This document shows, in pieces, positions 12,099 through 27,515 of a stretch of 43,828 nucleotides of DNA. The stretch is from Archangium sp. (GTDB lineage Bacteria; Myxococcota; Myxococcia; Myxococcales; Myxococcaceae). Below the pieces are notes generated by a model. That model was given only the letters and a program-made list of their open reading frames with translations, had not been told where the DNA came from and did not search any database. Every line of letters starts with the position of its first letter. The stretch's first letter is position 1. The stretch is from the NCBI GenBank assembly GCA_031367385.1, contig JANLPS010000556.1, positions 1-43,828 of the forward strand, given 5' to 3'. The translations under genes and the position numbers were made by a program.

Positions 12099-13037
12099 GT
12101 GCTCATGTGGGTCGTACCCTTCCTGCTCGCGACCCAAAGCGCCGAACTCTGCATTGACGCTGAAATCGATCCGGCGACCTCGGCTCCGGTGGTGTCGTTG
12201 CACGACCTGGTGCCCGCATTGCGAGCGCGTTTGGCGGGCAAAGCGATGGAGGCGTCGGCATGCACTTCGAGCAGCGCGCTGTGGCAGGCTCATGTGCAGC
12301 GCGCGAGCCCGCAGACACTGCGGTTGGCGCTCGTCGGCCCTGAGAGTGCCTTTGAGCTCGAGCTCTCAGAGACCGGCCTCTCGAGCGGGCAGGTCATCGA
12401 GCAGATCGCCCTCAAGGTGGCCGAGGCCGTGCGCCCGACCCGCGACGTGCCGTTCATCGAGCCGCCCTTGGTCGTCGTGGTTCCCTCCGTGGCCGTTGCA
12501 GCGCCTCCTGTCGAACGTCGCTCCTCGATACCGCTCGACGTCGAGCTCCTCGCGTTTGGCACCGTCGGTATACCCTTCGCTGGGCCGGCCGGAGGCGGGC
12601 AGCTCGCGCTCGCGCTTAGGGTCGGCACCTTCAGAGTCAGCGCGGCGGCAGGCGGCGTCGCTCCCACCCGGCGTAGCGCGCTCGGCGTGACGCTCTCGAG
12701 CGCGCGCATCGACTTCGGCATCGGAGCCGATTGGCTCGTCTCGCTCTTCGAGCTCGGCCTTCGACTCACTGGCCGCCGTGTGCTCGTGCAGGCGGCGAGC
12801 ACCAGCATTGCCCTCACCAGTGCCCGACAAGACTATTGGGCAGCCACAGGCGCCCTTCGGGCCTCGATTTGGCCGCTTCGCTGGAGTCACTTCGCCCTTG
12901 GCGCGGCGCTCGAGGCCAACTTCGTCTGGGCACCGCGCTCGTTTTCAGTCAACGGCGCCCCGGCCTTCGCGCAGTCGTTCTTCGAGGGTGCGCTGTACAT
13001 CGGCGCCCGCTTCACTCCATCAGGCCCCGACGCATGA
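12099..13037 (+). CDS. Hypothetical exported protein with beta-barrel-like C-terminus (ECF operon)
   Basis: Signal-like N-terminus, Pro/Val linker, amphipathic beta strands ending YIGARF; ATGA overlap with the sigma gene. Confidence 0.6.
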   Translation: MLMWVVPFLLATQSAELCIDAEIDPATSAPVVSLHDLVPALRARLAGKAMEASACTSSSALWQAHVQRASPQTLRLALVGPESAFELELSETGLSSGQVIEQIALKVAEAVRPTRDVPFIEPPLVVVVPSVAVAAPPVERRSSIPLDVELLAFGTVGIPFAGPAGGGQLALALRVGTFRVSAAAGGVAPTRRSALGVTLSSARIDFGIGADWLVSLFELGLRLTGRRVLVQAASTSIALTSARQDYWAATGALRASIWPLRWSHFALGAALEANFVWAPRSFSVNGAPAFAQSFFEGALYIGARFTPSGPDA

Positions 13038-13609
13038 ACGAGCCCAGCGACTACGAGCTCGTCACCCGGGCGCTGAAGAACGACCCGCGCGCGTTCGATC
13101 TTTTGTACCTCCGTTACGCCCCAGCGATCGGCCGCCGCCTGCGACGGCTCGTCTTTCAAGACGAAGACGCCGAAGACCTGATGCAGGCGACCTTCTTCGA
13201 AGCCCACAATGGCCTTGCTCGGTTTCGGGCTGACGCGAGCTTCGAGGGGTGGCTGTACGCGATCGCGTTTCGGCTGGTCGGCAACTACATCAAGGCGTCG
13301 CGGCGAAAGTGGTGGCACATTTCCTCTCCTGGCCCGACAGTCGACGACACTGCCATGGGAGGTACGGGCGTTGACGACCAAGCCGCGAGCCGTCAGCGAA
13401 TCTCAAAGCTTTACCGGGCGCTCGATGAGCTCACACCCCCCAAACGCATCGCTTTCGTGCTTCACGAGTTTGAAGGTCTCGATCTCACGGAAATAGGACG
13501 TCTGATGGGCGCCACGCCGCAAACCACGTGGGCGCGGGTCGAAAGTGCTCGCAAGATTCTGCGAGAAAAGCTCGGCGACGATGACGGGCCAAAGGGCCTC
13601 GGCACATGA
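13034..13609 (+). CDS. ECF RNA polymerase sigma factor
   Basis: DAEDLMQATF, FEGWLYAIA, region 4 (AFVLHEFEGLDLTEIG..ARVESAR). Confidence 0.92.
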   Translation: MNEPSDYELVTRALKNDPRAFDLLYLRYAPAIGRRLRRLVFQDEDAEDLMQATFFEAHNGLARFRADASFEGWLYAIAFRLVGNYIKASRRKWWHISSPGPTVDDTAMGGTGVDDQAASRQRISKLYRALDELTPPKRIAFVLHEFEGLDLTEIGRLMGATPQTTWARVESARKILREKLGDDDGPKGLGT

Positions 13610-15294
13610 AGTCAGACCACTCCCATACGCTCCGAGCGCTGGTTGATGAGGCGACCGCGGCGAAGCCCGACCTGGCGCCCGAGAAGATCGATCAGGTGTT
13701 GGGCCGGGTGAGGCGCCAACTCGCCGACGCTGAAGCCACGTCGAGACCGGTGCTCTGGCGCCGCCCGGTGCTGGCCCTTGCAACCCTGGTGGTCGTGGCG
13801 GGAGCCGCCCTCTGGTACGCGAAGAATCGGGCCGCGGTCGACCCGCCGACCCCACTGGCTGCTGCGACCCCACCAGTGCGGGTACAGAAGATCGAAGGGG
13901 CGTACCGCTTGGGCCAAACGCCAACGGCGCTCGCAACCCTCGCGACCTTGTCGAATGAGATCGTTCTCGAGCTGGCCGCTGGCAGCCATGCACAGCTCGA
14001 CGTCGAGAAGACAGCTTCGGTGGCGCTGGTCGGCCCGGCTGAGCTCACGAATGGCAGAATCGTTCGACTGATGTCTGGGCGGGCTTCGTTCAGCGTGAAG
14101 AAACAACCCCCTGGCAGCGAGTTCGCGGTGCTCGCGGGCGATACGACGGTCGTCGTTCACGGCACCCGCTTCGCGCTCGCCGTCGATCACGGGCAATTGA
14201 TGGGTCTTCGCGTGACGGAGGGGCTCGTCGAGCTCCGCGGGCCGCGATTTTCTGGCGGGGTGCAAGTACCGGCGGGCGATCAATGGGGCGAGCCGCTGAC
14301 CGAAATCGAGCCCATCATCGAAGCCCCGGCGGGGCCTTCAACCGGGGGCATCGACCTCGCGACGAGCCCGTCTGGTGCATCGCTGTCGATCGACGGGGTC
14401 GCGTACGGGCAGGCCCCTCTCTGGCTCCGGGTCGAGCGCGGCCAGCACGAGGTCGAAGCGAAGCTCGCTGGCTACCTCGTCGCGCGTGCTCAGGTCACCG
14501 TCGAGGCAGACCGGGTCGAAATCAGTCGCCTGATTCTCGAAAAAGCCGCACCGATCGCAGTCGAGCCCCAATCACAGAGCCCCGCGCTGCCCGAGCCGAC
14601 GGCTCCTGCGGCCCGCGTACCGCCCGACTTTTTGCAATTGGCGGAGCGTGCGCTGCGATTGGGCAAGTGCACAGAGATCGATCATCTCGTGGCGATTGAA
14701 CGAAAAAGAAACCCAGGTGGGTACGACCGCATTGCCACGCTTCAAGCAGAGTGCGCGCTGCGCGGAGGCCAGCCTCGTGTCGCGCTCGAAGTCTACAAGG
14801 GCATCGCGGCCAACGGCGCGGGTGGAGCCGAAGCCGCGCAGTTCGAAGTCGGTAAGCTGCTGGCCGACCTCGACGATCATGACGGCGCGCTTCGAGCGCT
14901 CGACCTTTACCTGGCAAGATACAAACGCGGTCGCTTCGAGTCAGAGGCCGCTTTTCGGCGCTGCGAAGCCTTCATCGCGCTCACGCTGCCCGCCGACGCG
15001 CGCTTCTGTTTGGAGGCCTTTCTCGCCGCAAAGCCCGAAGCGCCTCGGCGGCAAGAAGCGTTGTTCGACTTGGCGACCATCGAGCGAACCGATCACCGCT
15101 GGGCCGAGGCGGCGAAGCACTATGAGGCGTACCTCAAGAACGCCCAGGGGCCCCGCGCAGAAGAGGCCCTCTTTCAGTTGGCCCGCTGCCGAAAGAACGG
15201 CTCGCTGCCTGGTGTGAGCGACGCCATCGACGAGGCGCTTCGCCGCTTTCCACACGGGGCGCATGTCGATGAGCTCGAGAAGCTCAGGCAATGA
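13606..15294 (+). CDS. FecR-PEGA-TPR putative anti-sigma factor
   Basis: One TM helix, FecR motif VVVHGTRF.V...VTEGLV, PEGA (TSPSGASLSIDG..G.H.V...GY), C-terminal TPR-like helices; ATGA-coupled to the sigma gene. Confidence 0.85.
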   Translation: MKSDHSHTLRALVDEATAAKPDLAPEKIDQVLGRVRRQLADAEATSRPVLWRRPVLALATLVVVAGAALWYAKNRAAVDPPTPLAAATPPVRVQKIEGAYRLGQTPTALATLATLSNEIVLELAAGSHAQLDVEKTASVALVGPAELTNGRIVRLMSGRASFSVKKQPPGSEFAVLAGDTTVVVHGTRFALAVDHGQLMGLRVTEGLVELRGPRFSGGVQVPAGDQWGEPLTEIEPIIEAPAGPSTGGIDLATSPSGASLSIDGVAYGQAPLWLRVERGQHEVEAKLAGYLVARAQVTVEADRVEISRLILEKAAPIAVEPQSQSPALPEPTAPAARVPPDFLQLAERALRLGKCTEIDHLVAIERKRNPGGYDRIATLQAECALRGGQPRVALEVYKGIAANGAGGAEAAQFEVGKLLADLDDHDGALRALDLYLARYKRGRFESEAAFRRCEAFIALTLPADARFCLEAFLAAKPEAPRRQEALFDLATIERTDHRWAEAAKHYEAYLKNAQGPRAEEALFQLARCRKNGSLPGVSDAIDEALRRFPHGAHVDELEKLRQ

Positions 15295-16820
15295 CCGCGA
15301 CGAGACGAGCCGTTCAGGGCTGCGTTGTCAGTCTCTGCCTGGTCGTCTTGGCGATGCGCTGCTCCGTCGCGGTCGAGCTCTCGGCCTGCTGGCCCGACAC
15401 GTGCGCCGAACCGTCAGTCGACGCCGGCCCGGTCTGTGTACCCACGGGCGCGGTCGAGCGCTGTGACGGCCTCGACAACGACTGCAACGGCCACACCGAT
15501 GAAGGCGTCTGCGGCACGTGCGCGTGTACCAGTTGGGCGTCGGTGGTGGCGCTGCCCGCGCCAGTAGGGCCTGCCGCAGACACGACCGGTGCGGCGCACA
15601 GAATCGGCTTCGATGGTCAAGACACCCTTGGCATTGCCCGCCAGCTCACCTTGCCCTTCTCGTCAGTCTGGTTTGGTCGGCGGCAGGTCGACGGAGGCAC
15701 CATCGGCAACGACCGCGTGCTCTCGAGCACCGGAGGCGTGTCGCAGCTCATCGACACCGTCTGGTCGGGCACCCACTGGGTCTCGGCGTGGGTTGCGAAC
15801 GACAGCACCCTCGTGTTGAACGTCGTCACGCCCAACGGCACCGAGTTGGTGAGCAGTAACGGCTCGCCCGGCATTGAGCTCACAGCCATCGCCGCCATCA
15901 ACGACGACATCTACGGGGGTTCGGAGACCGGTACCTCGGCCTCGGTGCAGCGCATCACCACTGCTTTCGCGTTGGCCGGCCCGGCAGCGAAGTTCGACCA
16001 CCTCGCACACCTGGTCGCGATGCGAGCCGTGGGAGATGCCGTGGTGGCGGTCGGCACTGACACGTCGGGGGGCATGTACTCGGCGGTCGTTCGCGGCGAT
16101 GCGTTGGTCTCCGAAGACGAGCTGCTGCCAGCCCACACCGCTGCCAGTGCCCCCGCTTCCATCGCCTCCGATGGAGCCGTGGCGATGGTCTGTTGGGGTG
16201 CGACCGAGGGCATCTGGTGTCGCCCTCTGTCGATGCTCAGCGGCAGACCCGCGATACCAGCGTTCTTGGTGTCGGCCGATCAATCGGTCTCATGGGCCAT
16301 GGCGAGGGCGTCGTGCGATTTCATCTTGCTGACCGGGCACCAGCTCGGAGCCGGAGCGGTCGGGTATTCCCGCGCGCGACATTTCAACGCTCAGGGCCAG
16401 GTCGATGCGCTGGTCGCAACGGTCGATTCGCAGTGGGTTCAGCCCCGGCCCTCGGTGCGATTGCTCACCGCCGCCGACGGTCGCTTGATTCGGGTGACCG
16501 AGCAGAGTGATGGCGACGGGGTCGTCGTCTCGAGCTTGTCATGCGATCTGCCACCAGCGGCAACCGACTGCTCGACGGTCGTTGCGGCGGCGTGTGACAT
16601 CGCCTGTACCCCGTGCCCTCAAGCGCTTCCTGGCTGCCTGCTGAGCCAAGGCAGTGGCGTCAGCAGGGGCTTTGATCGAGCTGCGTGCGATTCGAAGATT
16701 CAGATGACCATCGATTGCTCGGTCATCAACCTCGAGAAGTGCCAGCTTGCGATGCAGAAGCCTGCGAGCTGTTCGGCCAAGGGTTGGCTGGTTCCCTCCG
16801 AGTGCGTCGCGCCTCGGTAG
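15291..16820 (+). CDS. Cys-rich exported/lipoprotein with ExCDGLDNDCNG putative metal-binding motif
   Basis: Hydrophobic N-terminus with Cys; ERCDGLDNDCNGHTDE; propeller-like middle; Cys-rich tail; ATGA-coupled. Confidence 0.7.
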   Translation: MTATRRAVQGCVVSLCLVVLAMRCSVAVELSACWPDTCAEPSVDAGPVCVPTGAVERCDGLDNDCNGHTDEGVCGTCACTSWASVVALPAPVGPAADTTGAAHRIGFDGQDTLGIARQLTLPFSSVWFGRRQVDGGTIGNDRVLSSTGGVSQLIDTVWSGTHWVSAWVANDSTLVLNVVTPNGTELVSSNGSPGIELTAIAAINDDIYGGSETGTSASVQRITTAFALAGPAAKFDHLAHLVAMRAVGDAVVAVGTDTSGGMYSAVVRGDALVSEDELLPAHTAASAPASIASDGAVAMVCWGATEGIWCRPLSMLSGRPAIPAFLVSADQSVSWAMARASCDFILLTGHQLGAGAVGYSRARHFNAQGQVDALVATVDSQWVQPRPSVRLLTAADGRLIRVTEQSDGDGVVVSSLSCDLPPAATDCSTVVAAACDIACTPCPQALPGCLLSQGSGVSRGFDRAACDSKIQMTIDCSVINLEKCQLAMQKPASCSAKGWLVPSECVAPR

Positions 16821-16829
16821 CTCCAGGGC

Positions 16830-16918
16830 TATTTCCACCACGCGTTGATTTACAAATTGCTTTCGCGAGCGCTGAAGCGGCCTCGCGACGTTTTGAAAAT
16901 CAGCACGCGCGGGAAATA
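16830..16918 (+). promoter_or_regulatory. Long imperfect stem-loop in the Rhs leader
   Basis: Nested pairings TATTTCC/GGAAATA, GTTGATT/AATCAGC, TCGCGAG/CTCGCGA, CGC-TGAA-GCG; inner stem followed by CGTTTT. Confidence 0.45.
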
Positions 16919-16960
16919 CATACATCGCCCCACTCGATCGCCGTCGCCCCGAAAGAAAAC

Positions 16961-19900
16961 ATGAGAGCCCACTCCACGCACCACCAGAGACGCATTGCGC
17001 CTCGACGCAGCCGCACGCCCCTCTTCTCGAGTGGTTTTTGGTCTCGTCTCTTGGTGACCGCGCTCCTCGCAGCCGCGGCCTCGGCTTCGGCGGGGTCGAC
17101 CATCGTCGACAATGACGCAGCGTACCCCGCCTTCTGGTCGTCGGGCCCGTGGTCGCCGAGCACACAAGGCTCGACCTTTCAGGGCACGAATCACCTCGTG
17201 GCGACGAGCCCGAGCACCGGGGCCATCGACAACACAACGGCGAGCTTCAGCACGACTGGCACCTGGGTCGTCGACACCGCACTCAGTGGGTACTACGGCT
17301 CGAACTACGCGCGCGGCACCACGACCGGCAACAGCTTCCACATCCCAGAAATCGTGGTCGACAACACCACGAACGGAGCCGGCGGAGGGCAGCTCAACTT
17401 CTCGGGCGGCGGCTGGTCGGTTGCGACCACCCCGACCGGCTACTACGGCCGCGACTTCGCCTACTTTCAACCGAACGTCTCGACCTCGTCGAAGAGGGCG
17501 GTCTATTCATTCATGCTGCGAATGCCGGGTAATTCTGCCGGCACCTTTCCGATGAATGTCTTTGCGCATTGGCCAGCCGACCCGGCCAACGCGTCGAACG
17601 CGGTGGTTCGCATTTACAGCGGAGACTACCTGGTGAGCCGTGACCCATCATTTCTCGTCGCGAGCTACACGTTGAATCAACGGGTGGCCTCCGGCACGTG
17701 GTTCAGCTTGGGAACACTGAACCTGGGCACCTCTCGCACCTACTATGTCGAGTTTGATGCATCGCTGGCGAACGGCCGCGTCATCGCTGATGCCATTCGT
17801 CTCACCTCGGCCGACACCACCCCTGCAACGGTCGCAAAATGGCTGCTCCCGAGTGGCTCGGGCCTCTATGACGTGTACGCCCGAAACCCGGCCAACCCCT
17901 CATTGGCTTGGCAGGTCGCTTGGACCCTCGTCGGAGGCAATGGCGCCGAGTACCCGATCGACGGCGACACCAACTCGCAGCGGGTCAATTCAGGTGTGTG
18001 GAAGAAGCTGGGGTCGATTGACCTGACTGGCACCCAGTCAAACTACGTACAGCTCGAGCTCTTCGGTGGAGGCGTGCAGACGGGCGTCGCCGACGCCGTG
18101 CTCGCTGTACCCACCGGCACTTTCCCCATTGCCAAGTGGCAAGCTCCCGTCGTCGGAGATGCAGACCTTTGGGCGTCATGGTCGGCAGCGACCGGCCGCA
18201 ACCCCGCGGTCTCCTATACCGTCACCTCGTACCCGGCGGGTTGCAGCGCGACCACCACGCTGATCACCGTCGACCAGACGAAGCCACCACCCAGTGGCGG
18301 TTTGTACCTTGGCCGGTTCAGCTCGACGCCCCCGTGCGTGCCGGTGTCGGTCACCTTGACGACCGGGGTGTTGAATGGCGGGGTCATGTCAGCCGACGCC
18401 GTCACGTTCACGCAGCCTCCGGTGCTCGCAGCACTCACCGCAACCCCAGACGCGGTGGCGATCGCAAGCCCCCTGACGACTGGCTCGAGCGTGCTGGAGT
18501 GGGCCTCGCCGGTGCCAGCGCTGCTCACCAAGAAGTGCGGCACGGCAGCCGAGACCAGCGTCTCGACCGGCCTCGCGCTCAGCGGCCGTCAGACAGTCTC
18601 TGCGTTGCCGATCGGCACCTGCACCTTCTCGCTCCGAGCTGGAGGGACCGCGGGCATGCCGATCGCCACGGCGCAAGTACAGGTGCTGAGCGTCGGGTTA
18701 ACAGCCACCCCGAACCCGGTGATTCTTGCACCCGCCGCGTTGACCGGCACGACCTCGATCACATGGGCCGCCACCGCTGAGGTCGACATTTTCGCCGACT
18801 GCGGCACCGGCGCGACCACCATCGTCTCCGGTGTGGGCGGCGGCACGCAACAGTTCGGCTCCGTGCCCCGCGGAGGCAGCTGCGATCTGGTGATGCGCCT
18901 CAACACGTTCAACCCGAGCATCGTCGGGCCGCAGGCCCCAGGGCCGATTCTGGCGACGCTCACAGTGACAGGCGCTGCGGCTGCAGTGCCTCTGCCAGCC
19001 CCGCCGGTCAACACCGCTCCCGTGATTGACCTCGAATACGACGCCGAGGGCAACTCCACCAAAGTCATCGAGGCCAAGGGCGTCGCGAACTTCAACCTGA
19101 CGACCGCCGCCACGTACGACTCGCTCAACCGCGCAAAAGTCGTCACCGACGCGAAGTCGGCGGCGATGACGTGGGGGTACGACGGCGCCGACCGAACGAC
19201 CCAGCTGAGCGACCCCAAAAACCTGCTCACCGCGTACTTGCGCAACGGGCTGGGCCAAATTTCACCGCAGCTCAGCCCAGACACTGGAGTCAATGCCCGC
19301 ACCTACGACGCCGCAGGCAACCTCTTGACCCGCACCGATGGTCGCGGCGTCGTGACAACCTACGCCTACGACGCCCTCAGCCGGCTCACCAAGGTCTCGT
19401 TCGCCGCGCCAACAGGCAGTGAGACGATGAACTTCACCTACGACGAGACCGGGCCCGACTTTCTCAATGGCATCGGCCAGCTGACGAGCGCCACGTACGC
19501 CAGCGGGTCGAGCCGTTTCTCGTACGACGCGAATGGTCGCCTGCTGTCAGAGACCCAAATACTTGTGCCGGTCAGTAGGACGTACCCCATCACGATTACG
19601 TCGAAGACGGCCTACACATACGACGGTGCCGGCAACGTGACCTCCATCACCTACCCCTCGGGTACGCGAGTCGACTTTTCGCTCGTGGGCGGCCTCCCAT
19701 CACAGCTCTCCGTGAGCAAGGGTGCTGCTGGGCCGCGGGTCGTGATGTCGTCGATCACCTGGCAGCCCCTTGCCGGCCTGAAGAGTTGGAAGACGCACTA
19801 CGCCAACGGCACTCCGTTGCAGGAGCGGGTGTACGACTCCAGCGGTCGACAGGTGCGTTACCAGCTGGGCAATGCGATTCGCGACTTAAGCTACGACGCT

Positions 19901-21277
19901 GCCTCGCGCATCGTTCGCTACACCCACTACGACCGTTCCACCAGCGCTGCGCTCCCTGCTTTGGACCAGGCCTTCGCCTACGACGCCGTCGGTCATCTCA
20001 CTGACGTGCAGGCCGGCGGCAGCACGTGGAAGTACGCGTACTCCGACCCGAATGGGAGCCGCACCTCGGTCACGCGAGACGGAGCGCTCAACACCTTCAC
20101 GGTATCGCCCACCACCAATCGACTGCTGAGCACGTCGTCGCAGACCTTCGAATACGACGGGGCCGGCAACACGACGGTGTTCGAGGGCCCCACCGCTGCC
20201 ACGTTCTCTCCATCGAACCGCTTGGTGGTGGTCGCGGGGCGTAAGGCTGCGGCGAACGGTTTCACCATCGTACCGGTCCGTGCTCCGGTGAGGTACGTCT
20301 TCGACGCGTTCGGCCGCAGAGTGAGAAAACTCGCTGGTCTGGGCGGCGTCATTTTCAACTACGACATGTCGAATCACCTGCTTGGTGAATACGACTCCAC
20401 CGGCAACGCCATTCGCGAATATGTGTGGCTGGGCAGCACGCCGGTCGCCGTGTTGGTGCCAACTCCGGCGGGGCTGCCAGATGTGTACTTCATTCACACC
20501 GACCACCTCGACGCCCCTCAAGCCGTACTCGATGAGAATCAGCGCGTGCGGTGGCTGTGGCTCACCGAGCCCTTCGGCACCACGGCCCCTCAAACGAACC
20601 CCGAAGGCCTCGGTGTATTCGAGCTCAATCTTCGCTTTCCCGGGCAATACGCCGACGCGGAGACTGGCTTGTTTTTCAACGGCTTTCGCGACTACGCGCC
20701 ATCTCTGGGCCGCTACATCGAGTCTGACCCTGTGGGCCTTGCCGCGGGTGTCAATACGTACAGCTACGTGCAGAGCGCACCGACGAACCAGGCTGACCCG
20801 CTTGGGTTGATGGGCGTTGCCTCAGGCGCCTACCGCTCGTCGAGTAGCCCTCGCGCGATCAAGCCGAACACCCTCGCGTGGTACTACGGTGCCGAAGCGC
20901 ATTTTATCGTCGGGGCGGGCGTGACCTCCGTCACGTGCACCGATGAATGCGGTCGTCACCAGACCTTTCGATATTCCAAGGCCTGTTTCGGTCTGGCCGC
21001 GGGTGCGAGTTTTGGAGGCGGCGCCGTCACCGGCATGAGCGGGAAAGCCTGCAATGCACAGAGCTACAAAGGCTGGTTCATCGAGTTTGGCGCATCGGCC
21101 GGCCCACTCTCCGGCGGCGTTGACTTCGGCTACAACGATGACGGCTTCTCGATTGGTCCCCTCAAGCTCCCGGGTACGCAATCAGGTGTGAACGAAGCCT
21201 CCTTCGGGCTCGGAGGATTTGGGCGAGCCGGCTTCGAAGCGAAAGCGTCGTACTGCTACTACTTCATCCTCCCCTGA
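16961..21277 (+). CDS. Rhs protein A: signal peptide, golvesin-like domains, two Ig-like repeats, C-terminal half of YD cage, Rhs core, C-terminal tip
   Basis: ATG 16961; LLVTALLAAAASASA signal; YD repeats (YDAAGNL, YDALSRL, YDANGRL); HTDHL, NLRFPGQY, GRYIESDPVGL, PTNQADPLGL. Confidence 0.92.
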   Translation: MRAHSTHHQRRIAPRRSRTPLFSSGFWSRLLVTALLAAAASASAGSTIVDNDAAYPAFWSSGPWSPSTQGSTFQGTNHLVATSPSTGAIDNTTASFSTTGTWVVDTALSGYYGSNYARGTTTGNSFHIPEIVVDNTTNGAGGGQLNFSGGGWSVATTPTGYYGRDFAYFQPNVSTSSKRAVYSFMLRMPGNSAGTFPMNVFAHWPADPANASNAVVRIYSGDYLVSRDPSFLVASYTLNQRVASGTWFSLGTLNLGTSRTYYVEFDASLANGRVIADAIRLTSADTTPATVAKWLLPSGSGLYDVYARNPANPSLAWQVAWTLVGGNGAEYPIDGDTNSQRVNSGVWKKLGSIDLTGTQSNYVQLELFGGGVQTGVADAVLAVPTGTFPIAKWQAPVVGDADLWASWSAATGRNPAVSYTVTSYPAGCSATTTLITVDQTKPPPSGGLYLGRFSSTPPCVPVSVTLTTGVLNGGVMSADAVTFTQPPVLAALTATPDAVAIASPLTTGSSVLEWASPVPALLTKKCGTAAETSVSTGLALSGRQTVSALPIGTCTFSLRAGGTAGMPIATAQVQVLSVGLTATPNPVILAPAALTGTTSITWAATAEVDIFADCGTGATTIVSGVGGGTQQFGSVPRGGSCDLVMRLNTFNPSIVGPQAPGPILATLTVTGAAAAVPLPAPPVNTAPVIDLEYDAEGNSTKVIEAKGVANFNLTTAATYDSLNRAKVVTDAKSAAMTWGYDGADRTTQLSDPKNLLTAYLRNGLGQISPQLSPDTGVNARTYDAAGNLLTRTDGRGVVTTYAYDALSRLTKVSFAAPTGSETMNFTYDETGPDFLNGIGQLTSATYASGSSRFSYDANGRLLSETQILVPVSRTYPITITSKTAYTYDGAGNVTSITYPSGTRVDFSLVGGLPSQLSVSKGAAGPRVVMSSITWQPLAGLKSWKTHYANGTPLQERVYDSSGRQVRYQLGNAIRDLSYDAASRIVRYTHYDRSTSAALPALDQAFAYDAVGHLTDVQAGGSTWKYAYSDPNGSRTSVTRDGALNTFTVSPTTNRLLSTSSQTFEYDGAGNTTVFEGPTAATFSPSNRLVVVAGRKAAANGFTIVPVRAPVRYVFDAFGRRVRKLAGLGGVIFNYDMSNHLLGEYDSTGNAIREYVWLGSTPVAVLVPTPAGLPDVYFIHTDHLDAPQAVLDENQRVRWLWLTEPFGTTAPQTNPEGLGVFELNLRFPGQYADAETGLFFNGFRDYAPSLGRYIESDPVGLAAGVNTYSYVQSAPTNQADPLGLMGVASGAYRSSSSPRAIKPNTLAWYYGAEAHFIVGAGVTSVTCTDECGRHQTFRYSKACFGLAAGASFGGGAVTGMSGKACNAQSYKGWFIEFGASAGPLSGGVDFGYNDDGFSIGPLKLPGTQSGVNEASFGLGGFGRAGFEAKASYCYYFILP

Positions 21278-21351
21278 GCTCCGCCGCCGTGGCCTCGCGC
21301 CCGCTGCCGTGGGCTCTTGCATCTTCATCTTCATTTTCAATGGATGGACCT

Positions 21352-23808
21352 ATGTCTCGTTTGCTCCTTTTGATTGCTGTTTCACTCTGCAGTGTGGCGC
21401 TGGCGGCCCCGGCTGACTGCGCGAGCGCGGCGCTCGATGGCACGACCGAATGCACGGCGCCTCTGGTCTCGAACTTCACCTACAGCTACTGCGACCCCAA
21501 CTTGATCACCGAGGGCCTGAACATCGACAGCAACTGCCTTGGGCCCGGGGTCGTCGAGACCGAGGGCCGAATTCTCGACGCAGCGAACTGCGTACGGGCC
21601 TCGAAGGCCAAGCCGCCTCCGCCGCCGCTGACGAGCCTGCCGTGGCAGCCGCAAGGCTCGACGCTCGATGTCTCGTGGTCGTGCGGAGTTCTCAAGAGTG
21701 AGTGGAAGTATGGGCAGGAAATGACCGGCTGGGCGATTATCGGCGGCCACCCTTTCTCGGGGCCCAACTTCTGGGCCCTTCGCCGGAAGACGGCGGTGTG
21801 CCCGCGCGGGTATTTAGCCCATGCCTACGACGCCAATAGTTGGCCAGACTACTGCACCCGCAAGCTGAAGATGGCCTGTGAGACGGTGGGCAACCCGATT
21901 GGTATTGCGAATGGTGAAAAGCAAATCGTGCCCGAGACCGACTACCAGGGCGTCGCCGACTCGCCACTTCGGTTCGAGCGCTTCTATTCGAGCCAAGCCT
22001 GGTATCGGCCCATGAACCAGCCCGCCGTCGTCGAGCGCGGCTTTGGGAGTTTCTGGCGACACACCTATGACCGAAGAATCTATGAAGAAAACTCAGTTGC
22101 CTTGCTGGCTTCGGCGGTGCGGGCCGATGGCCTGGTGAAGCACTTTAGACGCGACGGTACCGAGGTGCTCCGACAGACCAACAGCGACGACCGCCTCGTT
22201 CAGGTGCCGGCAGGGTGGCAACTGCGCACGTCTGACCAGATCGAAAACTACGACCATGAAGGTCGGCTCACTTCGATCGAGCACATCTCTGGCGCGCGCG
22301 AAACCCTCACCTACAGCGATGCCACGACGCCCAAGCCCGTCGCTTCTCGTTCGGGTCTGCTCATTTCAGTCACAGACCACTCGGGTCGTTCATTGAAGTT
22401 TGCGTACGACACGGTCGACCGGTTGAGCACGATGACCGACCCCGACGGTCGCACCTCCGTGTACACCTTCGACACCAACGAGATGCTGACCCGGGTAACG
22501 TACCCAGACGGCGCGTCTCGGTCTTTCGGGTACAACGACAACCCGAGCTCCTTGAACGGCGGTGACACAGGTCTGACGAGCATCTTCGATGAGGCTGGGG
22601 CCCGCTACGCCACCTACGGCTATCGCGATGATTACAATAGCGCCTTCGACGTGACCGAACACGCGGGGGGCGTCGAGAAATACCGACTCTCTGTAGATGG
22701 CAACTCCGTGATCATTTACGACCCGCTCGACAACTCCCGTCTGGTGACGCTGTCGAAGGTCGGCGGGGTGCCGCACGTGGTGAATCAGTCGCAGCCGGCC
22801 GGGAGTGGGTGTCTGGCGAGTAACCGGGCCATGACCTACGACCCCGTGACGAGCGACCTGGTCAGCTCCGACGACTTCAACAAGCATCGAACCTGCTTTG
22901 CCTACGACGCCCGCAAGCGCGAAGTCACCCGCGTCGAGGGCCTCGCGACCACGGTCAGCTGCGCGAGCGTGCTCCCCACCGGTGCGGCGCTCCCCGCCGG
23001 TGCCCGCAAGACCACCACCACCTGGCTCGGTGAGTGGGCGCGTTCGAGCCAAACCAGTGGCCCCGGGAGGCGCATCACCTCTGTCTACAACGGGCAGCCC
23101 GACCCGACGAATGGCAACGCCGTGGCCGTTTGTGCGTCTGGCGGCACGCTCGCTGACGGCACACCGTTGGTCGTTCTCTGTAAGCAGATTGAGGAGGCAA
23201 CCACCGACTCCAACGGCTCGCTCGGGGTGCTTGCGCCGACCGACCCGGCAGTCGCTCCTCGCGTCTGGAGCTGGACCTACGATGCCAGCGGTCGCGTTCT
23301 CACCAACATCGGGCCCCGAACAGACATCGTCGACCTGACACGCTTCGAGTACTACGAATCGACCACGACCGATTTTCGGGCCGGCGACCTCTTTCGGGTG
23401 ACGAACGCGGCCAACCATGTCACCACCTTCACCCGCTACTCGCCGTCGGGGCGTCTGCTCGAATCCACCGACGCCAACGGCGTTCGCACGACGCGCGCGT
23501 GGGACGCGAGAAATCGGCTCTCTTGGCTCGGCACGGGCGACTCGAATACACGCCACGACTACTGGCCAACGGGCCTGCTCAAGAAGACCACCCTCGGCAA
23601 CGGCGAGTTTCGATTCTACGAATACGACGCCGCGCACCGGCCCTTGAGGGTCACCGACAGCTTGGGCACTACCACCACCTTCACGCTCGACAACCTCGGC
23701 AATCGCAAAGGCGAAACAGTGACCAACGCGAATGGCAGCTCGGTACAAACGGTGAGTCGGAGCATCGACGCCCTCGGCCGGGTTCAGCAAACCACCGGCA
23801 TTCGCTGA
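21352..23808 (+). CDS. Rhs protein B: signal peptide, Cys-rich domain, DUF6531-like domain, YD repeats, no Rhs core
   Basis: MSRLLLLIAVSLCSVALA; VGNPIGIANGEK..ETDY..LRFERFYSS..FGSFWRHTYD; many YD repeats; ends SIDALGRVQQTTGIR without DPxG. Confidence 0.88.
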   Translation: MSRLLLLIAVSLCSVALAAPADCASAALDGTTECTAPLVSNFTYSYCDPNLITEGLNIDSNCLGPGVVETEGRILDAANCVRASKAKPPPPPLTSLPWQPQGSTLDVSWSCGVLKSEWKYGQEMTGWAIIGGHPFSGPNFWALRRKTAVCPRGYLAHAYDANSWPDYCTRKLKMACETVGNPIGIANGEKQIVPETDYQGVADSPLRFERFYSSQAWYRPMNQPAVVERGFGSFWRHTYDRRIYEENSVALLASAVRADGLVKHFRRDGTEVLRQTNSDDRLVQVPAGWQLRTSDQIENYDHEGRLTSIEHISGARETLTYSDATTPKPVASRSGLLISVTDHSGRSLKFAYDTVDRLSTMTDPDGRTSVYTFDTNEMLTRVTYPDGASRSFGYNDNPSSLNGGDTGLTSIFDEAGARYATYGYRDDYNSAFDVTEHAGGVEKYRLSVDGNSVIIYDPLDNSRLVTLSKVGGVPHVVNQSQPAGSGCLASNRAMTYDPVTSDLVSSDDFNKHRTCFAYDARKREVTRVEGLATTVSCASVLPTGAALPAGARKTTTTWLGEWARSSQTSGPGRRITSVYNGQPDPTNGNAVAVCASGGTLADGTPLVVLCKQIEEATTDSNGSLGVLAPTDPAVAPRVWSWTYDASGRVLTNIGPRTDIVDLTRFEYYESTTTDFRAGDLFRVTNAANHVTTFTRYSPSGRLLESTDANGVRTTRAWDARNRLSWLGTGDSNTRHDYWPTGLLKKTTLGNGEFRFYEYDAAHRPLRVTDSLGTTTTFTLDNLGNRKGETVTNANGSSVQTVSRSIDALGRVQQTTGIR

Positions 23809-23840
23809 CCCTCGTCGTTCGCGCTCGAGGTGCCACAGCC

Positions 23841-25712
23841 TTAGAGGCAGCAGCGAAAGCCGAGATGATCAGCCCCGCCACGGCCGATGATCAACGCCTC
23901 GCGGGTCTCGCACGACGACTGCTTCGCCGGCTGCTTGAACGAACCGCCTCGAATGATTCGCTGGGTGGGCTTGTCCGTGACGGCCGTCGAGGTCCACTCC
24001 GCGAGGTTACCGGCAAGGTCGAAGACCCCTTCTTCGCTCACGCAGTTGAGCAAGCTGCCCGACGCCAGCCGCGCGGGTTTCTTGGGCCGCAGCTCTTTGG
24101 TGTTGCAGCGCTGCGCTCTGAGCTCGGCGCCGTAGGCGAACTTTCGATGCGAGGCGCCCTGACACGCCGCCACCCACTCTTCGTCGCTGCACAGGTGCTT
24201 GCTCTGCTCATTGCACAACGTGTTCGCTTGGGCCCAATCGACCTTGCTCGCCGGCAGCACTTTGGCGCGATTGGGGTACTCGTAGGCGTCGATGAAGACC
24301 TTGCCCATTCGAACCATGCCGTGCTCGCGCGCGAATTGAATTCGGTGGGCGTCGGTGACCCAGGCGGCGGCCTCGGCGCTCTTGGGCTCGAGGCGCTCGA
24401 GCGCAGCAGCACACTCGAGCGCGCGCTCGGGTTCTTCAGCCAACAGGGCGCCCCGGCCGGTGAAGACCAACGACGCGGCCACGCTCGCGTGCAGCGCGGG
24501 CCACTCCCCGCGACCGGGAAACGCGTGCTGCGCGCTCAGCAACCGATCGAGGGCGCCCTCGCCGGGTTGGGTCACCAGCCCTGCGTCGAGCTGGGCTTGA
24601 ATGCCGGCGGCCTCGATGCTCACCGCGACCAACAACGCGTCGGTGGGCCCGCTCTGGGTCTCGGGCGAGGCTTTCGTCACGCCTCGAGCCGCCAGCGCCG
24701 CCGCGATGCCGAGGGCCACCACCAGCGCGCCTCCCACCAGCCAGGGCCACCGTCGACGTGGTGGTGACTTCGCCGAGACGGCCTCGGGCGTGAGTGGCCC
24801 CGCCGCACGTTGCAGCGCTTCGGTCACCGCCAGCGCCGAGCCAGGCCGGTCTTTTGGTGCGGCCTGCATCAGCTCGACCACCAGCGCGCTCACCGCCTCG
24901 GGCACCTCGGGTCGCTCGAAGCGCAGGTTGGGCCGCTCGGAGAACCGGTTCTCTTTTGGCACCCGCGTCGCGCTGTCGAAAGCGAAGGGCACGTGCCCGG
25001 TCAACATCTCGAACAGCAAGCAACCGAAGGCATACAGGTCAGCCTCGGGCCCCGCCCCCAGCCCGGCTGCCTGCTCGGGCGCGACGTAGTCAGCCGTGCC
25101 CTGGGCAAGCCAGAGATCTGCGGTCTCTTTGGTGGCGATGCCGAAGTCGAGCAGCTTGGCAAATTCGGCGCCCTGGGTCGGCTGCACGATGAAGACGTTG
25201 CTGGCCTTCAAGTCGCGGTGAACGAAGCCAGCGCGGTGCGCGGCCTCGAGCGTCGCGAGCAACGAGGTCGAAATCTCAACCGTCTCGGCCAGGCTGAGCA
25301 CGCCCTTGCGATGAATGCGAACGTCGAGCGCCTCGCCGACCAGGAGCTCCATCACCAGGTATTCGCGGCCGTCGGGCAGGCAACCCACCGCGGAGATCTG
25401 CACGATGCCGCGCTCACCGACGGCGTTGACCGCCTTGGCTTCTTGCAGCGCGAGGGCCGCCCGGCGATCGCTCGAGGCGGGGTGAATGATCTTGAAGGCC
25501 ACCCGCTGTTCGCTGCTGACTTCGAGGGCTTCGTAGACCGCGCCCATGCCGCCGACGCCGAGGCGCCGAATGATTCGGTACCCGTCGATGACGGTGTTGA
25601 CCAACGGGTCGAAAGACGGGCTGATCAGCTCGGTGCCGTCATTGGGGCAGAGAATGGCCCTCGGGTCGGGGAGGGTGCCACAGACCGGGCAGGCCCCGAG
25701 GGTCATCGTCAT
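23841..25712 (-). CDS. Ser/Thr protein kinase with TM helix and C-terminal FGE-sulfatase-like domain
   Basis: CPVC..CPND N-terminus; LGVGGMGAVY, HRDLKASN, DFG, APE; TM; IDAYEYPN, DLAGNLAEW, RGGSF, GFRCC. Confidence 0.9.
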   Translation of the reverse strand: MTMTLGACPVCGTLPDPRAILCPNDGTELISPSFDPLVNTVIDGYRIIRRLGVGGMGAVYEALEVSSEQRVAFKIIHPASSDRRAALALQEAKAVNAVGERGIVQISAVGCLPDGREYLVMELLVGEALDVRIHRKGVLSLAETVEISTSLLATLEAAHRAGFVHRDLKASNVFIVQPTQGAEFAKLLDFGIATKETADLWLAQGTADYVAPEQAAGLGAGPEADLYAFGCLLFEMLTGHVPFAFDSATRVPKENRFSERPNLRFERPEVPEAVSALVVELMQAAPKDRPGSALAVTEALQRAAGPLTPEAVSAKSPPRRRWPWLVGGALVVALGIAAALAARGVTKASPETQSGPTDALLVAVSIEAAGIQAQLDAGLVTQPGEGALDRLLSAQHAFPGRGEWPALHASVAASLVFTGRGALLAEEPERALECAAALERLEPKSAEAAAWVTDAHRIQFAREHGMVRMGKVFIDAYEYPNRAKVLPASKVDWAQANTLCNEQSKHLCSDEEWVAACQGASHRKFAYGAELRAQRCNTKELRPKKPARLASGSLLNCVSEEGVFDLAGNLAEWTSTAVTDKPTQRIIRGGSFKQPAKQSSCETREALIIGRGGADHLGFRCCL

Positions 25713-25867
25713 GCGTCGGCCCACCGCGCAGCAGCCGTGGCCGCAGGGCGAGGCTCGGGCGGGAGCCCCGTCGCCATCACCGCCTCCACCGCAGCATGCA
25801 CGCGCATCAACGCTGCATCTGAGCATCGGCGGGGCGAAAGGCCAGCGTCATCTGGCGAAAGACGCGC

Positions 25868-26230
25868 TCAGATGGTCACGACCGACCGGCCAAAGGCGAC
25901 CCGCACCGCACCGGTTGAGGCCACCAACACCGAGATCATCAAGAAAACGAGCGAGAAGGCGATGTTGCTGAAGGCCTGACCACTGCATGCCACCATCAGC
26001 TCGGCGCGATCGGGGGTCGGCGCATTGACGCTGGCCTTGAGCAGGCCGGTCAGGCCCATGGCCACACCCAGCAAGCCTGAGATGGTGGTGAGCGCGCCCG
26101 CCGCGAGCAGCAGCGGTGTGAAGCGCACCTCGGGCTTGAAGGCGATGAGCAGCGCGGCCAGTACGGTGAGCGAACCGAACGAGGCCGTCGGGTACATCGT
26201 CAAACCGCCGTCAGCGAACAGATCGAACAT
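25868..26230 (-). CDS. Small three-TM membrane protein, MotA/TolQ/ExbB-like
   Basis: FADGGLTMYP start, GLLGVAMGL helix, third hydrophobic helix. Confidence 0.6.
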   Translation of the reverse strand: MFDLFADGGLTMYPTASFGSLTVLAALLIAFKPEVRFTPLLLAAGALTTISGLLGVAMGLTGLLKASVNAPTPDRAELMVACSGQAFSNIAFSLVFLMISVLVASTGAVRVAFGRSVVTI

Positions 26231-26319
26231 GGTGAAAGACTCCTGTTATCGAGTGAGCTCCCCTCGACAGCGAAGCGCACACCCGGTTCCCCCGTGTTTT
26301 GCGATACACCTGTGGGCCC

Positions 26320-26739
26320 ATGCCCATTCGCGTGCTGGTGATGCTCGGCTTCACGGTCTTCGCCGCCTGCACCAAACCCAAGGCCGTGTGGTCGCCGCAA
26401 CCACCCGTGACGCGCGCCGATGGGCTGGTCACTCAGGTGTTGGCGGCGGGCTCGGGCGACGAGGCCAAGCGCGGCGACAAGATCACCGTGCACTTCGTCG
26501 GCACCTTGAGCGACGGAGGCGTCTTCGACAGCTCCCGCGCCCGAAACGCCCCCTTCTCGTTCTGGGTGGGAGAGCGCCAGGTCATCGAAGGCCTCGACGA
26601 TGGGTTGCTCGGCATGCGCGAGGGCGAGACGCGGCGAATCACCGTGCCACCTGAGCTCGGCTACGGCAGTGACGAGAAGCCGGGCATCCCCCCTGGGTCG
26701 ACGCTGCGCTTTGAGGTCGAGCTGCTCGACGTGCGCTGA
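26320..26739 (+). CDS. FKBP-type peptidyl-prolyl isomerase, lipoprotein
   Basis: VHFVGTLSDGGVFDSS, VIEGLDDGL, PPELGYG, IPPGSTLRFEVELL; FAAC lipobox. Confidence 0.95.
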   Translation: MPIRVLVMLGFTVFAACTKPKAVWSPQPPVTRADGLVTQVLAAGSGDEAKRGDKITVHFVGTLSDGGVFDSSRARNAPFSFWVGERQVIEGLDDGLLGMREGETRRITVPPELGYGSDEKPGIPPGSTLRFEVELLDVR

Positions 26740-26849
26740 GCGCTTAGTTTGATGACCCGACCCCCGGCTCGTGCTCTCTTGCGGCGCGCGATTGTGTCTT
26801 CGTCGCGAAGCCGCACTCTTACAAACCAACACAAAGGGGCCGTACTTTG

Positions 26850-27515
26850 ATGAAACGCAATCTTCTTGCCGTGTGTGCCGTCGTCGCTCTCGCTGGCTGT
26901 GGTCACTTCTTCATCGTCAAAGACCGATACGACGCAGTGAAGAAGGTCGCGCTGGTGCAGTACGCGATCAACCCGCACTTGCTGATGGGCACTCCCAACG
27001 CCGACGAAGCCAAGTGGGACACCGCCGAGAGCAACATCGCCATCTTCGCCAAAGACCTGGGCAGCGGCTGGCAGGTGATGCCGAAGGCCGAGATGATCGC
27101 CAACCCCGCCTACACCGCGGCGGGCAAAGAGACGGTCGACGGCTGGTACACCGCCAAGGGCATGCGCTTCTTCAGCGAAGAGCGAAAAGAGCTCACCATG
27201 GCGACGCTGACCCCTGATCAGGCCAAGTCACTCGCGGCCGGCCTCGGCGTCGACGCGGTCGCGGTGGTCTCAGACAGCTGGAGCATCGACAGCTCGTTCT
27301 TCAGCGGCCACACCGTCAACGACTACTACATCAGCATGTACGCGGCAGACGGCACGCTCATCTACACCGACGCGGCGTACCGGGCGCGCTCTGAAGAAGG
27401 CTTCGCGGTGCCTCCGGGCGGCGCGGTCGCGACCGACGTGCCGAAGTGGGTGCTCAACAACAACCAGAGCTTCACCGCCGCGGTTGGGCAGCTCAAAGCC
27501 CACCTCGCGAAGTAA
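26850..27515 (+). CDS. Hypothetical lipoprotein
   Basis: MKRNLLAVCAVVALAGC lipobox; AGGGG RBS-like sequence upstream; strongly GC3-biased codons. Confidence 0.8.
   Translation: MKRNLLAVCAVVALAGCGHFFIVKDRYDAVKKVALVQYAINPHLLMGTPNADEAKWDTAESNIAIFAKDLGSGWQVMPKAEMIANPAYTAAGKETVDGWYTAKGMRFFSEERKELTMATLTPDQAKSLAAGLGVDAVAVVSDSWSIDSSFFSGHTVNDYYISMYAADGTLIYTDAAYRARSEEGFAVPPGGAVATDVPKWVLNNNQSFTAAVGQLKAHLAK

Follow-up and report, generated by a model that had tools for sequence, protein, structure and literature searches.

Adjacent genes of Archangium sp. encode complementary halves of a split Rhs protein, a candidate two-chain cage

We analysed a 43,828-nucleotide (nt) stretch of Archangium sp. DNA (the window; GenBank assembly GCA_031367385.1, contig JANLPS010000556.1), which makes up all of contig C277 in a genome (G000) of 8.0 Mb and 98% completeness. 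Two neighbouring genes on its forward strand, here called A and B, encode complementary portions of an Rhs protein: B carries 643 amino acids (aa) of Rhs sequence without an Rhs core, and A carries 608 aa that include the core. The two portions amount to about one cage, as a first-pass annotation made from the sequence alone had proposed, and we consider it probable (about 0.75) that B and A are the two halves of one heterodimeric Rhs cage, which would bind each other after predicted separate export through Sec, likely in the periplasm. The features of the pair are as follows.

16961..21277, forward strand: gene A, C-half chain of the split Rhs protein, 1438 aa, open frame
16961..17092, forward strand: predicted Sec signal peptide of A, aa 1-44, long basic n-region, ends ASASA (sequence and hydrophobic-segment heuristic)
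17093..18418, forward strand: Golvesin_C-like domains of A, apparently three nested (three N-halves, then C-halves); Pfam PF25275, 2 stretches
18419..18976, forward strand: two similar ~90-aa repeats of A (repeat similarity z 8.8)
18989..19054, forward strand: conserved Pro motif and first YD strand of A, PLPAPPVNTAPVIDLEYDAEGN; mature-chain start in most relatives
19055..20479, forward strand: YD repeats of A, C-terminal half of the shell (profile matches)
20480..20809, forward strand: Rhs core / aspartyl autoprotease of A, ends PTNQADPLGL; TIGR03696; R1243, D1256, D1279
20810..21274, forward strand: C-terminal tip of A, 155 aa, Gly-rich, Cys-containing, no Pfam family
21278..21351, forward strand: A-B gap, 74 nt, too short for an immunity gene; junction bridged by contigs of four runs
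21352..23808, forward strand: gene B, N-half chain of the split Rhs protein, 818 aa, open frame
21352..21405, forward strand: predicted Sec signal peptide of B, aa 1-18, ends VALA (sequence and heuristic)
21406..21879, forward strand: Cys-rich variable N-terminal domain of B, no known family
21889..22107, forward strand: DUF6531 of B, plug (cork) region of the cage; Pfam PF20148, residues 180-252
22108..23805, forward strand: YD repeats of B, N-terminal shell half, up to the family breakpoint R.xDAL.R.Q..TG

Each gene begins with a signal-like segment of its own, in agreement with the first-pass annotation: an uncharged hydrophobic 11-mer lies at both N-termini (Kyte-Doolittle 2.5 and 2.8), and an AxA end was read from each sequence. 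Internal similarity in the Golvesin-like region of A was found between N1 and N2 (z 4.1), N2 and N3 (z 5.6) and C3 and C2 (z 10.6) but was not significant for C1; of the three C-halves in 17093-18418, two are thus clearly alike and the third is not. A single relative of this region was found, a non-Rhs protein at 26% identity. The two ~90-aa repeats that follow are likely immunoglobulin (Ig)-like spacers, judging from their strand pattern. The YD repeats had been placed from about position 19030 onwards, followed by core and tip, and this holds, with repeats from about residue 690, the core at residues 1203-1283 and a tip of 155 aa. The proline-rich stretch before them is also present, yet it is not the linker it had been taken for: throughout the A family it forms the conserved beginning of the mature chain; P682 and D694 are invariant in 69 of 69 aligned rows. 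The protease residues R1243, D1256 and D1279 are invariant in the same proportion (69/69 rows), and the PxxxxDPxGL motif of the core is intact and matches that in the excerpted text of PMC8765631.

The earlier description of B as DUF6531 and YD repeats that stop without a core also stands, with PF20148 at residues 180-252, RHS repeats and no Rhs core before its last residues, DALGRVQQTTGIR; the repeat families PF05593 and TIGR01643 were matched in both A and B. A structure model of the 643-aa half folds confidently alone in silico (predicted local distance difference test, pLDDT, 92) and covers just the first half of solved cages, aligning to residues 275-854 of RhsA (Z 23.2, root-mean-square deviation 2.7, 519 of 1047), 283-825 of Tre23-Rhs and 48-628 of Tse5, with a best Z of 25.7 over solved cages. 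The RhsA cage comprises residues 268 to 1350 with a plug at 268-386 (PMC8765631, in excerpt), and because the model aligns from RhsA residue 275, the DUF6531 of B is assigned to the plug region. The model is closer to type VI secretion system (T6SS) Rhs proteins (Z 22-26) than to TcB (Z 12-13), along which it runs up to residue 1460 of YenB and 1444 of TcdB2. These positions lie presumably some 30 residues before the respective C-termini and, as a lead only, since the register in the repeat spiral can slide, the B break may fall in roughly the same region as the TcB/TcC boundary.

The point at which B stops is conserved across the family. Among the best 150 representatives, obtained with a B-half profile after clustering at 50% identity, 138 end within 12 aa of the same strand, which answers the question of breakpoint conservation raised at first pass, while five are fused and seven are of other kinds; contig-end truncation may touch single rows and cannot account for the shared end. 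On the other side of the break, 109 of the best 120 relatives of A (of 3207 matches to the A half) have a hydrophobic N-terminal segment, the motif AQxLPxPPVSPAPVVNYEYDAxGN stands at median position 43, and about a quarter carry extra domains, often Ig-like, before the Pro motif; A chains of some lineages (Ralstonia sp., L157) have the same first strand without the Pro motif. We further classified two sets of loci, 65 from genomes with B as the query and 72 from metagenomes with A as the query, together with three stretches of the window's genome, and in these the heuristic called a signal-like segment in 54 of 60 A genes (control stretches 2) and 64 of 69 B genes (control 8). Because sequence alignments of A against single-chain cages of solved structure shift from repeat to repeat, the junction was read from natural fused relatives: in 44 single-chain proteins the last B strand leads into the first A strand after a median of 7 residues (range 2-14), that is, one hairpin turn. 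The two halves tile one cage exactly. The window's own genome also holds an unsplit relative (C379:28645-33678), one of these 44.

The halves also occur together. In the classified loci, of which those fetched with B are mostly from Rhizobacter, Roseateles, Mitsuaria, Caldimonas, Aquabacterium, Piscinibacter and Ralstonia sp., 95 B genes are followed by A (55), a divergent or partial A (2), a whole or partial B (21), no room for a further gene (12) or nothing within 1.5 kb (5). Upstream of the 60 A genes stand B in 55 cases, a truncated B in one and a partial A in one, with no room in two and nothing Rhs-like in the last, which is the window; the 14 A genes of the A-fetched set alone have B upstream in 10, no room in two, and a truncated B and a partial A in one each. 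When 301 genomes of the family of Roseateles were sampled, with three to four candidates scored per genome, each half was matched in 19 and both in 16, and separate halves on one contig were always B first. Distances within the B half and the A half are correlated (Mantel r 0.74 over 45 pairs, best shuffle 0.36), which speaks for co-inheritance only, as kin are not independent. The first-pass annotation had treated the order A before B as part of the system, and had suggested looking for pairing and order in other taxa. Pairing was found there and the order was not: a permuted order as a family trait is rejected, being seen in one of 60 A genes and nowhere in the 301-genome sample, and both the second pair of the window's genome (G000:C151:12166-16865, with the same tip type) and the pair of a same-genus genome (G001) have B ahead of A. 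While the split holds for the family at large, the A-before-B order is a local exception. With a predicted signal peptide on either chain, the order of the genes ought to be immaterial, and this would account for the window's tolerance of the reversed order. The A type was found in G000 and G001 only among 61 genomes around the window's own, which suggests transfer into the genus.

The junction itself (21277-21352), flagged earlier as a possible misassembly, is crossed by single contigs in all four sequencing runs examined, from two studies (X1 15462-26405, X3 19001-27000, X5 14000-23852 and X6 21149-22175; the first three are possibly the source of the window itself, X6 is not so marked), and misassembly is ruled out. 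A simple frameshift had been discounted from the gene order, and we reach the same conclusion from the conserved break and from the use of all three relative frames of B and A (27/14/14), which together with the signal segment on A rejects frameshift and read-through.

Splits and fusions seem to recur at this one hairpin, although the alignment is short and recombination likely. On a quick, midpoint-rooted tree of the last 174 columns of B (177 rows, 123 split and 54 fused), the split or fused state changes 12 times, six of them forced by well-supported branches. One branch (Shimodaira-Hasegawa-like approximate likelihood ratio test, SH-aLRT, 96) unites 98 split rows, including the window's B on a long branch, with a single fused row, L159. 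In L159 (3250-7383, G208:C34) and in P0310 the Pro motif comes immediately after the B end and the signal segment is missing, and we read both as natural re-fusions. Eleven fused relatives (P0017, P0027, P0029, P0037, P0041-P0043, P0045, P0046, P0050 and P0051) end at one site just before the Rhs core, possibly a second conserved split point. In L160 (G180), L157 and P0035, extra domains sit in one loop of B and at, or close to, the chain ends created by the split, comprising a ~240-aa insertion (LamG-type Pfam in similar proteins), C-terminal extensions of B and Ig-like domains before the first A strand.

Both outer ends of the pair vary. The tips of A fall into 39 clusters among 47, and a small open reading frame (ORF) lies 3' of most A genes whose tips were compared. 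Seven of 45 tips match Pfam families (Tox-WTIP, Ntox16, a weak Ntox24, Tlde1, phospholipase A2, alpha/beta hydrolase and SAA) and 38 are without a family; the Serum amyloid A (PF00277) match, in the Rhs tip at L013:14096-14479, is strong (E 8e-30). Of 260 neighbours picked, 98 were scanned; few of these have a family, Imm57 and SMI1/KNR4 being among those seen. Orphan A fragments lie 3' of some A genes. The tip of the window's A is 53% identical to that of the second split pair of the same genome (C151); its other look-alikes are unnamed clusters only, at 0.92-0.93. B genes are often in tandem, as in the B-B-B-A loci L002 and L015 and in Ralstonia sp. R-29 with seven B to two A, and B-A-B-A arrays are common (L008, L021, L029, L030). 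Identity in 19 pairs of neighbouring B copies is 62-97% over the last 250 aa for 17 of them and 39-40% for two Ralstonia pairs; over the first 300 Rhs residues it is 25-47% in 17, and over the 120 aa before DUF6531 it is 14-38%. The N-terminal domains of B in these loci are Cys-rich and follow the signal-like segment; the type found in the window's B occurs in 13 records of relatives (some being the same sequence twice), and an Atlas search gave it no usable match. The two independently swappable display modules proposed at first pass were thus an understatement, as A has a hypervariable tip, usually with a small gene, and exchange among B copies affects their N-terminal end. A third architecture, seen in the Ralstonia genus at L167:5285-7948 and L168:5764-8316 (G385, G372), comprises a signal peptide, a variable domain, DUF6531 and a B-like half shell with a variable tip; an Rhs core is missing, and the tip is immediately preceded by a stretch that resembles a signal peptide and ends AHAQ. 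Similar matches occur in G367, G376, G379 and G380.

No T6SS gene was found among the 22 window proteins scanned and no PAAR domain on A or B, as had been noted before, and VgrG, TssC and Hcp were also not found in the 98%-complete genome by searches that did detect their positive controls. TcA (PF18276) was not found in the genome either, although no control genome gave a match. The genome has two GspD over the cut-off. Split pairs adjoin gspE/F/G in Ralstonia sp. R-29 and Pelomonas loci, and such matches lie near 7 of 41 split loci of at least 15 kb (two of them GspE alone) and near 0 of 15 fused loci, most of which are shorter. Export of the cage through a type II secretion system (T2SS) is plausible on these grounds. 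In Ralstonia sp. R-29, four B genes lie inside a gspE/F/G and pseudopilin cluster beside an integrase, with more B genes and A on the other strand (L156:58-19985), which reads as an island with its own T2SS-like machine.

Taken together, we propose that both chains would be exported separately by Sec, that the last strand of B would pair with the first strand of A in the periplasm with the Pro motif at the seam, and that the A-chain protease would then cut after L1283, leaving the tip enclosed in the cage. The folded cage may be released via the T2SS. Across the family the tip would be an antibacterial toxin, neutralised by the product of the small gene after A. Attachment of the cage would be set by the Cys-rich N-terminal domain of B and the sugar-binding-like (Golvesin-like) domains of A, and several B copies of a locus may be able to dock on one A. 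Of the first-pass reading, the following has indirect support: two complementary halves of one cage, a signal-like segment on each, conservation of breakpoint and pairing, and the lack of T6SS genes. The assembly of a heterodimeric cocoon after Sec export is a prediction.

Several observations weigh against this proposal. The window's tip has no Pfam family, unlike relatives with known toxin families, and no small, immunity-like gene lies 3' of its A, unlike in most relatives. The signal peptides were called by a hydrophobic-segment heuristic and not by SignalP. The gsp genes lie near just a minority of the long split loci and none is in the window. Pairing counts in the genome loci are biased, these having been fetched with B, and the five B genes without a downstream Rhs gene within 1.5 kb despite room include the window's. 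Finally, the order in the window is unique among the 60 A genes, so that the pair could be the remnant of an array.

A bolder version of the two-chain cage, which we offer tentatively, is that of a combinatorial toxin, in which a panel of N-halves with different Cys-rich aiming domains and the same docking end would assemble after export with C-halves carrying different payloads, so that target and toxin would be combined at protein level without recombination. The cage would be exported by the T2SS and need no injector, and its split would have arisen repeatedly at a hairpin close to the boundary between TcB and TcC. If true, this hairpin would be a natural assembly seam of YD shells.

The most serious alternative, though we regard it as unlikely, overlaps with the cage model and holds that the A-B cage serves at this locus as a scaffold for adhesion or display, as animal teneurins do, and that its cargo is harmless. 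It would account for a tip without a family and with no immunity-like gene after it, for the ~630 aa of Golvesin-like and Ig-like domains on A, and for both pairs of the genome keeping one tip type where tips usually all differ. The intact protease residues, however, make cleavage of the tip within the cage likely, relatives have known toxin families and immunity neighbours, and immunity could be encoded elsewhere or be unneeded for a caged, disulfide-bonded cargo. An improbable variant, which again overlaps with the cage model, is that the window's A and B are non-cognate, left over from a B-A-B array after loss of the first B, with a partner from C151 or none. B-A-B-A arrays are common, and the window's B and A differ in their nearest relatives at ~50% distance. 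In Roseateles sp. MS654, whose genome is complete and has four full B-A pairs at other loci, an intact A follows only a 106-aa C-terminal remnant of B (L155:9324-9644), which also suits this variant. In the window, nevertheless, neither gene is damaged, and the 74 nt that separate them hold no remnant and no immunity gene, and the C151 halves, at 0.58 and 0.63, are farther away than the nearest betaproteobacterial relatives (0.49 and 0.47).

It is quite improbable, in our judgement, that the halves act apart, B as a secreted adhesin-like half barrel and A closing alone or as a homodimer. The excess of B over A genes in many loci (seven to two in one Ralstonia genome), the confident model of B on its own and the coreless Ralstonia architecture with its tip directly on a B-like half would all fit, but exact tiling in fused relatives, conserved adjacency and re-fusions are at odds with it, B copies retain just their A-facing end, and TcB and TcC are both needed for folding (PMC6425310, in excerpt). 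Readings of the pair as one broken gene, as a programmed frameshift or as a misassembly can practically be discarded despite the survey practice of classing Rhs proteins of 350-799 aa as pseudogenes (132 of 294 in Ralstonia; 10.1101/2025.05.08.652813, in excerpt), given the break kept in nearly all clusters, the signal-like segment on A, the three frames, the C-half standing first and the bridged junction.

Returning to the heterodimeric cage, the pair is best read as a Sec-exported two-chain Rhs polymorphic toxin with a TcB-TcC-like build and a T6SS-Rhs-type plug, for which no injector was found. It has the shell, core motif and variable tip of Rhs polymorphic toxins and lacks defining features of both toxin complex (Tc) BC pairs and T6SS effectors. 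T6SS Rhs proteins (RhsA 7Q97, Rhs1/Tre23 7PQ5, Tse5 8CP6, Salmonella bongori Rhs 8QJB) share with it a plug and YD spiral of the same size class, and with its family the PxxxxDPxGL motif and a variable tip with an immunity gene in relatives; they are, however, single chains of plug, shell and core with a PAAR/VgrG link, whereas A/B consists of two chains with predicted signal peptides in a genome where no VgrG, TssC or Hcp was found. WapA is a Sec-exported single-chain YD-shell toxin with adhesion domains and a variable C-terminus. In the bacterial teneurin-like proteins, as described in the available part of PMC13018210, Sec-exported YD-shell toxins likewise combine adhesion domains with variable C-termini, but as a single chain with an FN-plug and NHL propeller. 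TcB-TcC is a two-chain YD shell in which fusions of the chains occur naturally and one B chain can serve several C chains (PMC6425310 and PMC11067744, both in excerpt), and Tc BC pairs (YenB-YenC, TcdB2-TccC3) resemble the proposed A/B cage in devoting two genes to one YD shell, the second with an aspartyl protease and variable cargo. In contrast to TcB, the domains recognised in B are DUF6531 and RHS repeats alone, without an SpvB or beta-propeller part, and B has less than half the size, its 643-aa half comparing with ~1450 resolved TcB residues; signal-like segments stand on both chains, and the N-half is multiplied and varied here where Tc loci vary the C chain.

The gspG-linked Rhs families XRhs F VIII (Xanthomonas) and RRhs F II (Ralstonia) are predicted to be T2SS-linked (10.1101/2025.05.08.652813), and the excerpted text of that preprint describes neither two-gene cages nor signal peptides for them. 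A chains without extra domains (690-800 aa) fall into its pseudogene size class. Rhs C-terminal displacement with orphan modules resembles the B/A arrays in having one conserved and one variable end; in the B arrays it is the N-terminal end that varies, and every copy, being a complete gene headed by a signal-like segment, could be used without recombination. The arrays thus suggest variation of the targeting end, a mirror image of classical Rhs tip displacement. In the literature covered, which mostly leaves out subscription journals, we found no account of a T6SS-type Rhs cage made as two signal-bearing genes, nor of N-terminally varied B arrays. What emerges is a widespread two-chain Rhs form outside Tc toxins and without a T6SS, which length-based surveys would file as pseudogenes, and a small natural system for studying YD shell closure round a cargo, target finding and entry without an injector and the origin of the TcB-TcC split. 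The reversed order in the window is modest by itself, yet it would be permitted if two exported chains assembled freely.

The surroundings of the pair are unremarkable in composition, as its GC content and that of its third codon positions (GC3) are similar to those of neighbouring genes, and no promoter-like site, above-chance terminator or boundary repeats were found around it. Other genes of the window identified by Pfam scan encode a Ser/Thr kinase with an FGE domain, an extracytoplasmic function (ECF) sigma factor with a FecR/PEGA partner, and a protein with a MopE motif, a set of genes that appears myxobacterial. On the same strand 5' of A (12099-16820) lie a 312-aa ORF, the ECF sigma factor, a FecR/PEGA/TPR anti-sigma-like gene and a 509-aa MopE-motif gene, the nearest of which is 140 nt from A; these genes may regulate, or be co-transcribed with, the A/B pair. 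Elsewhere in the genome, C412:718-6831 encodes an unrelated Rhs protein of 2037 aa, SpvB-like and of FG-GAP type by its sequence pattern.

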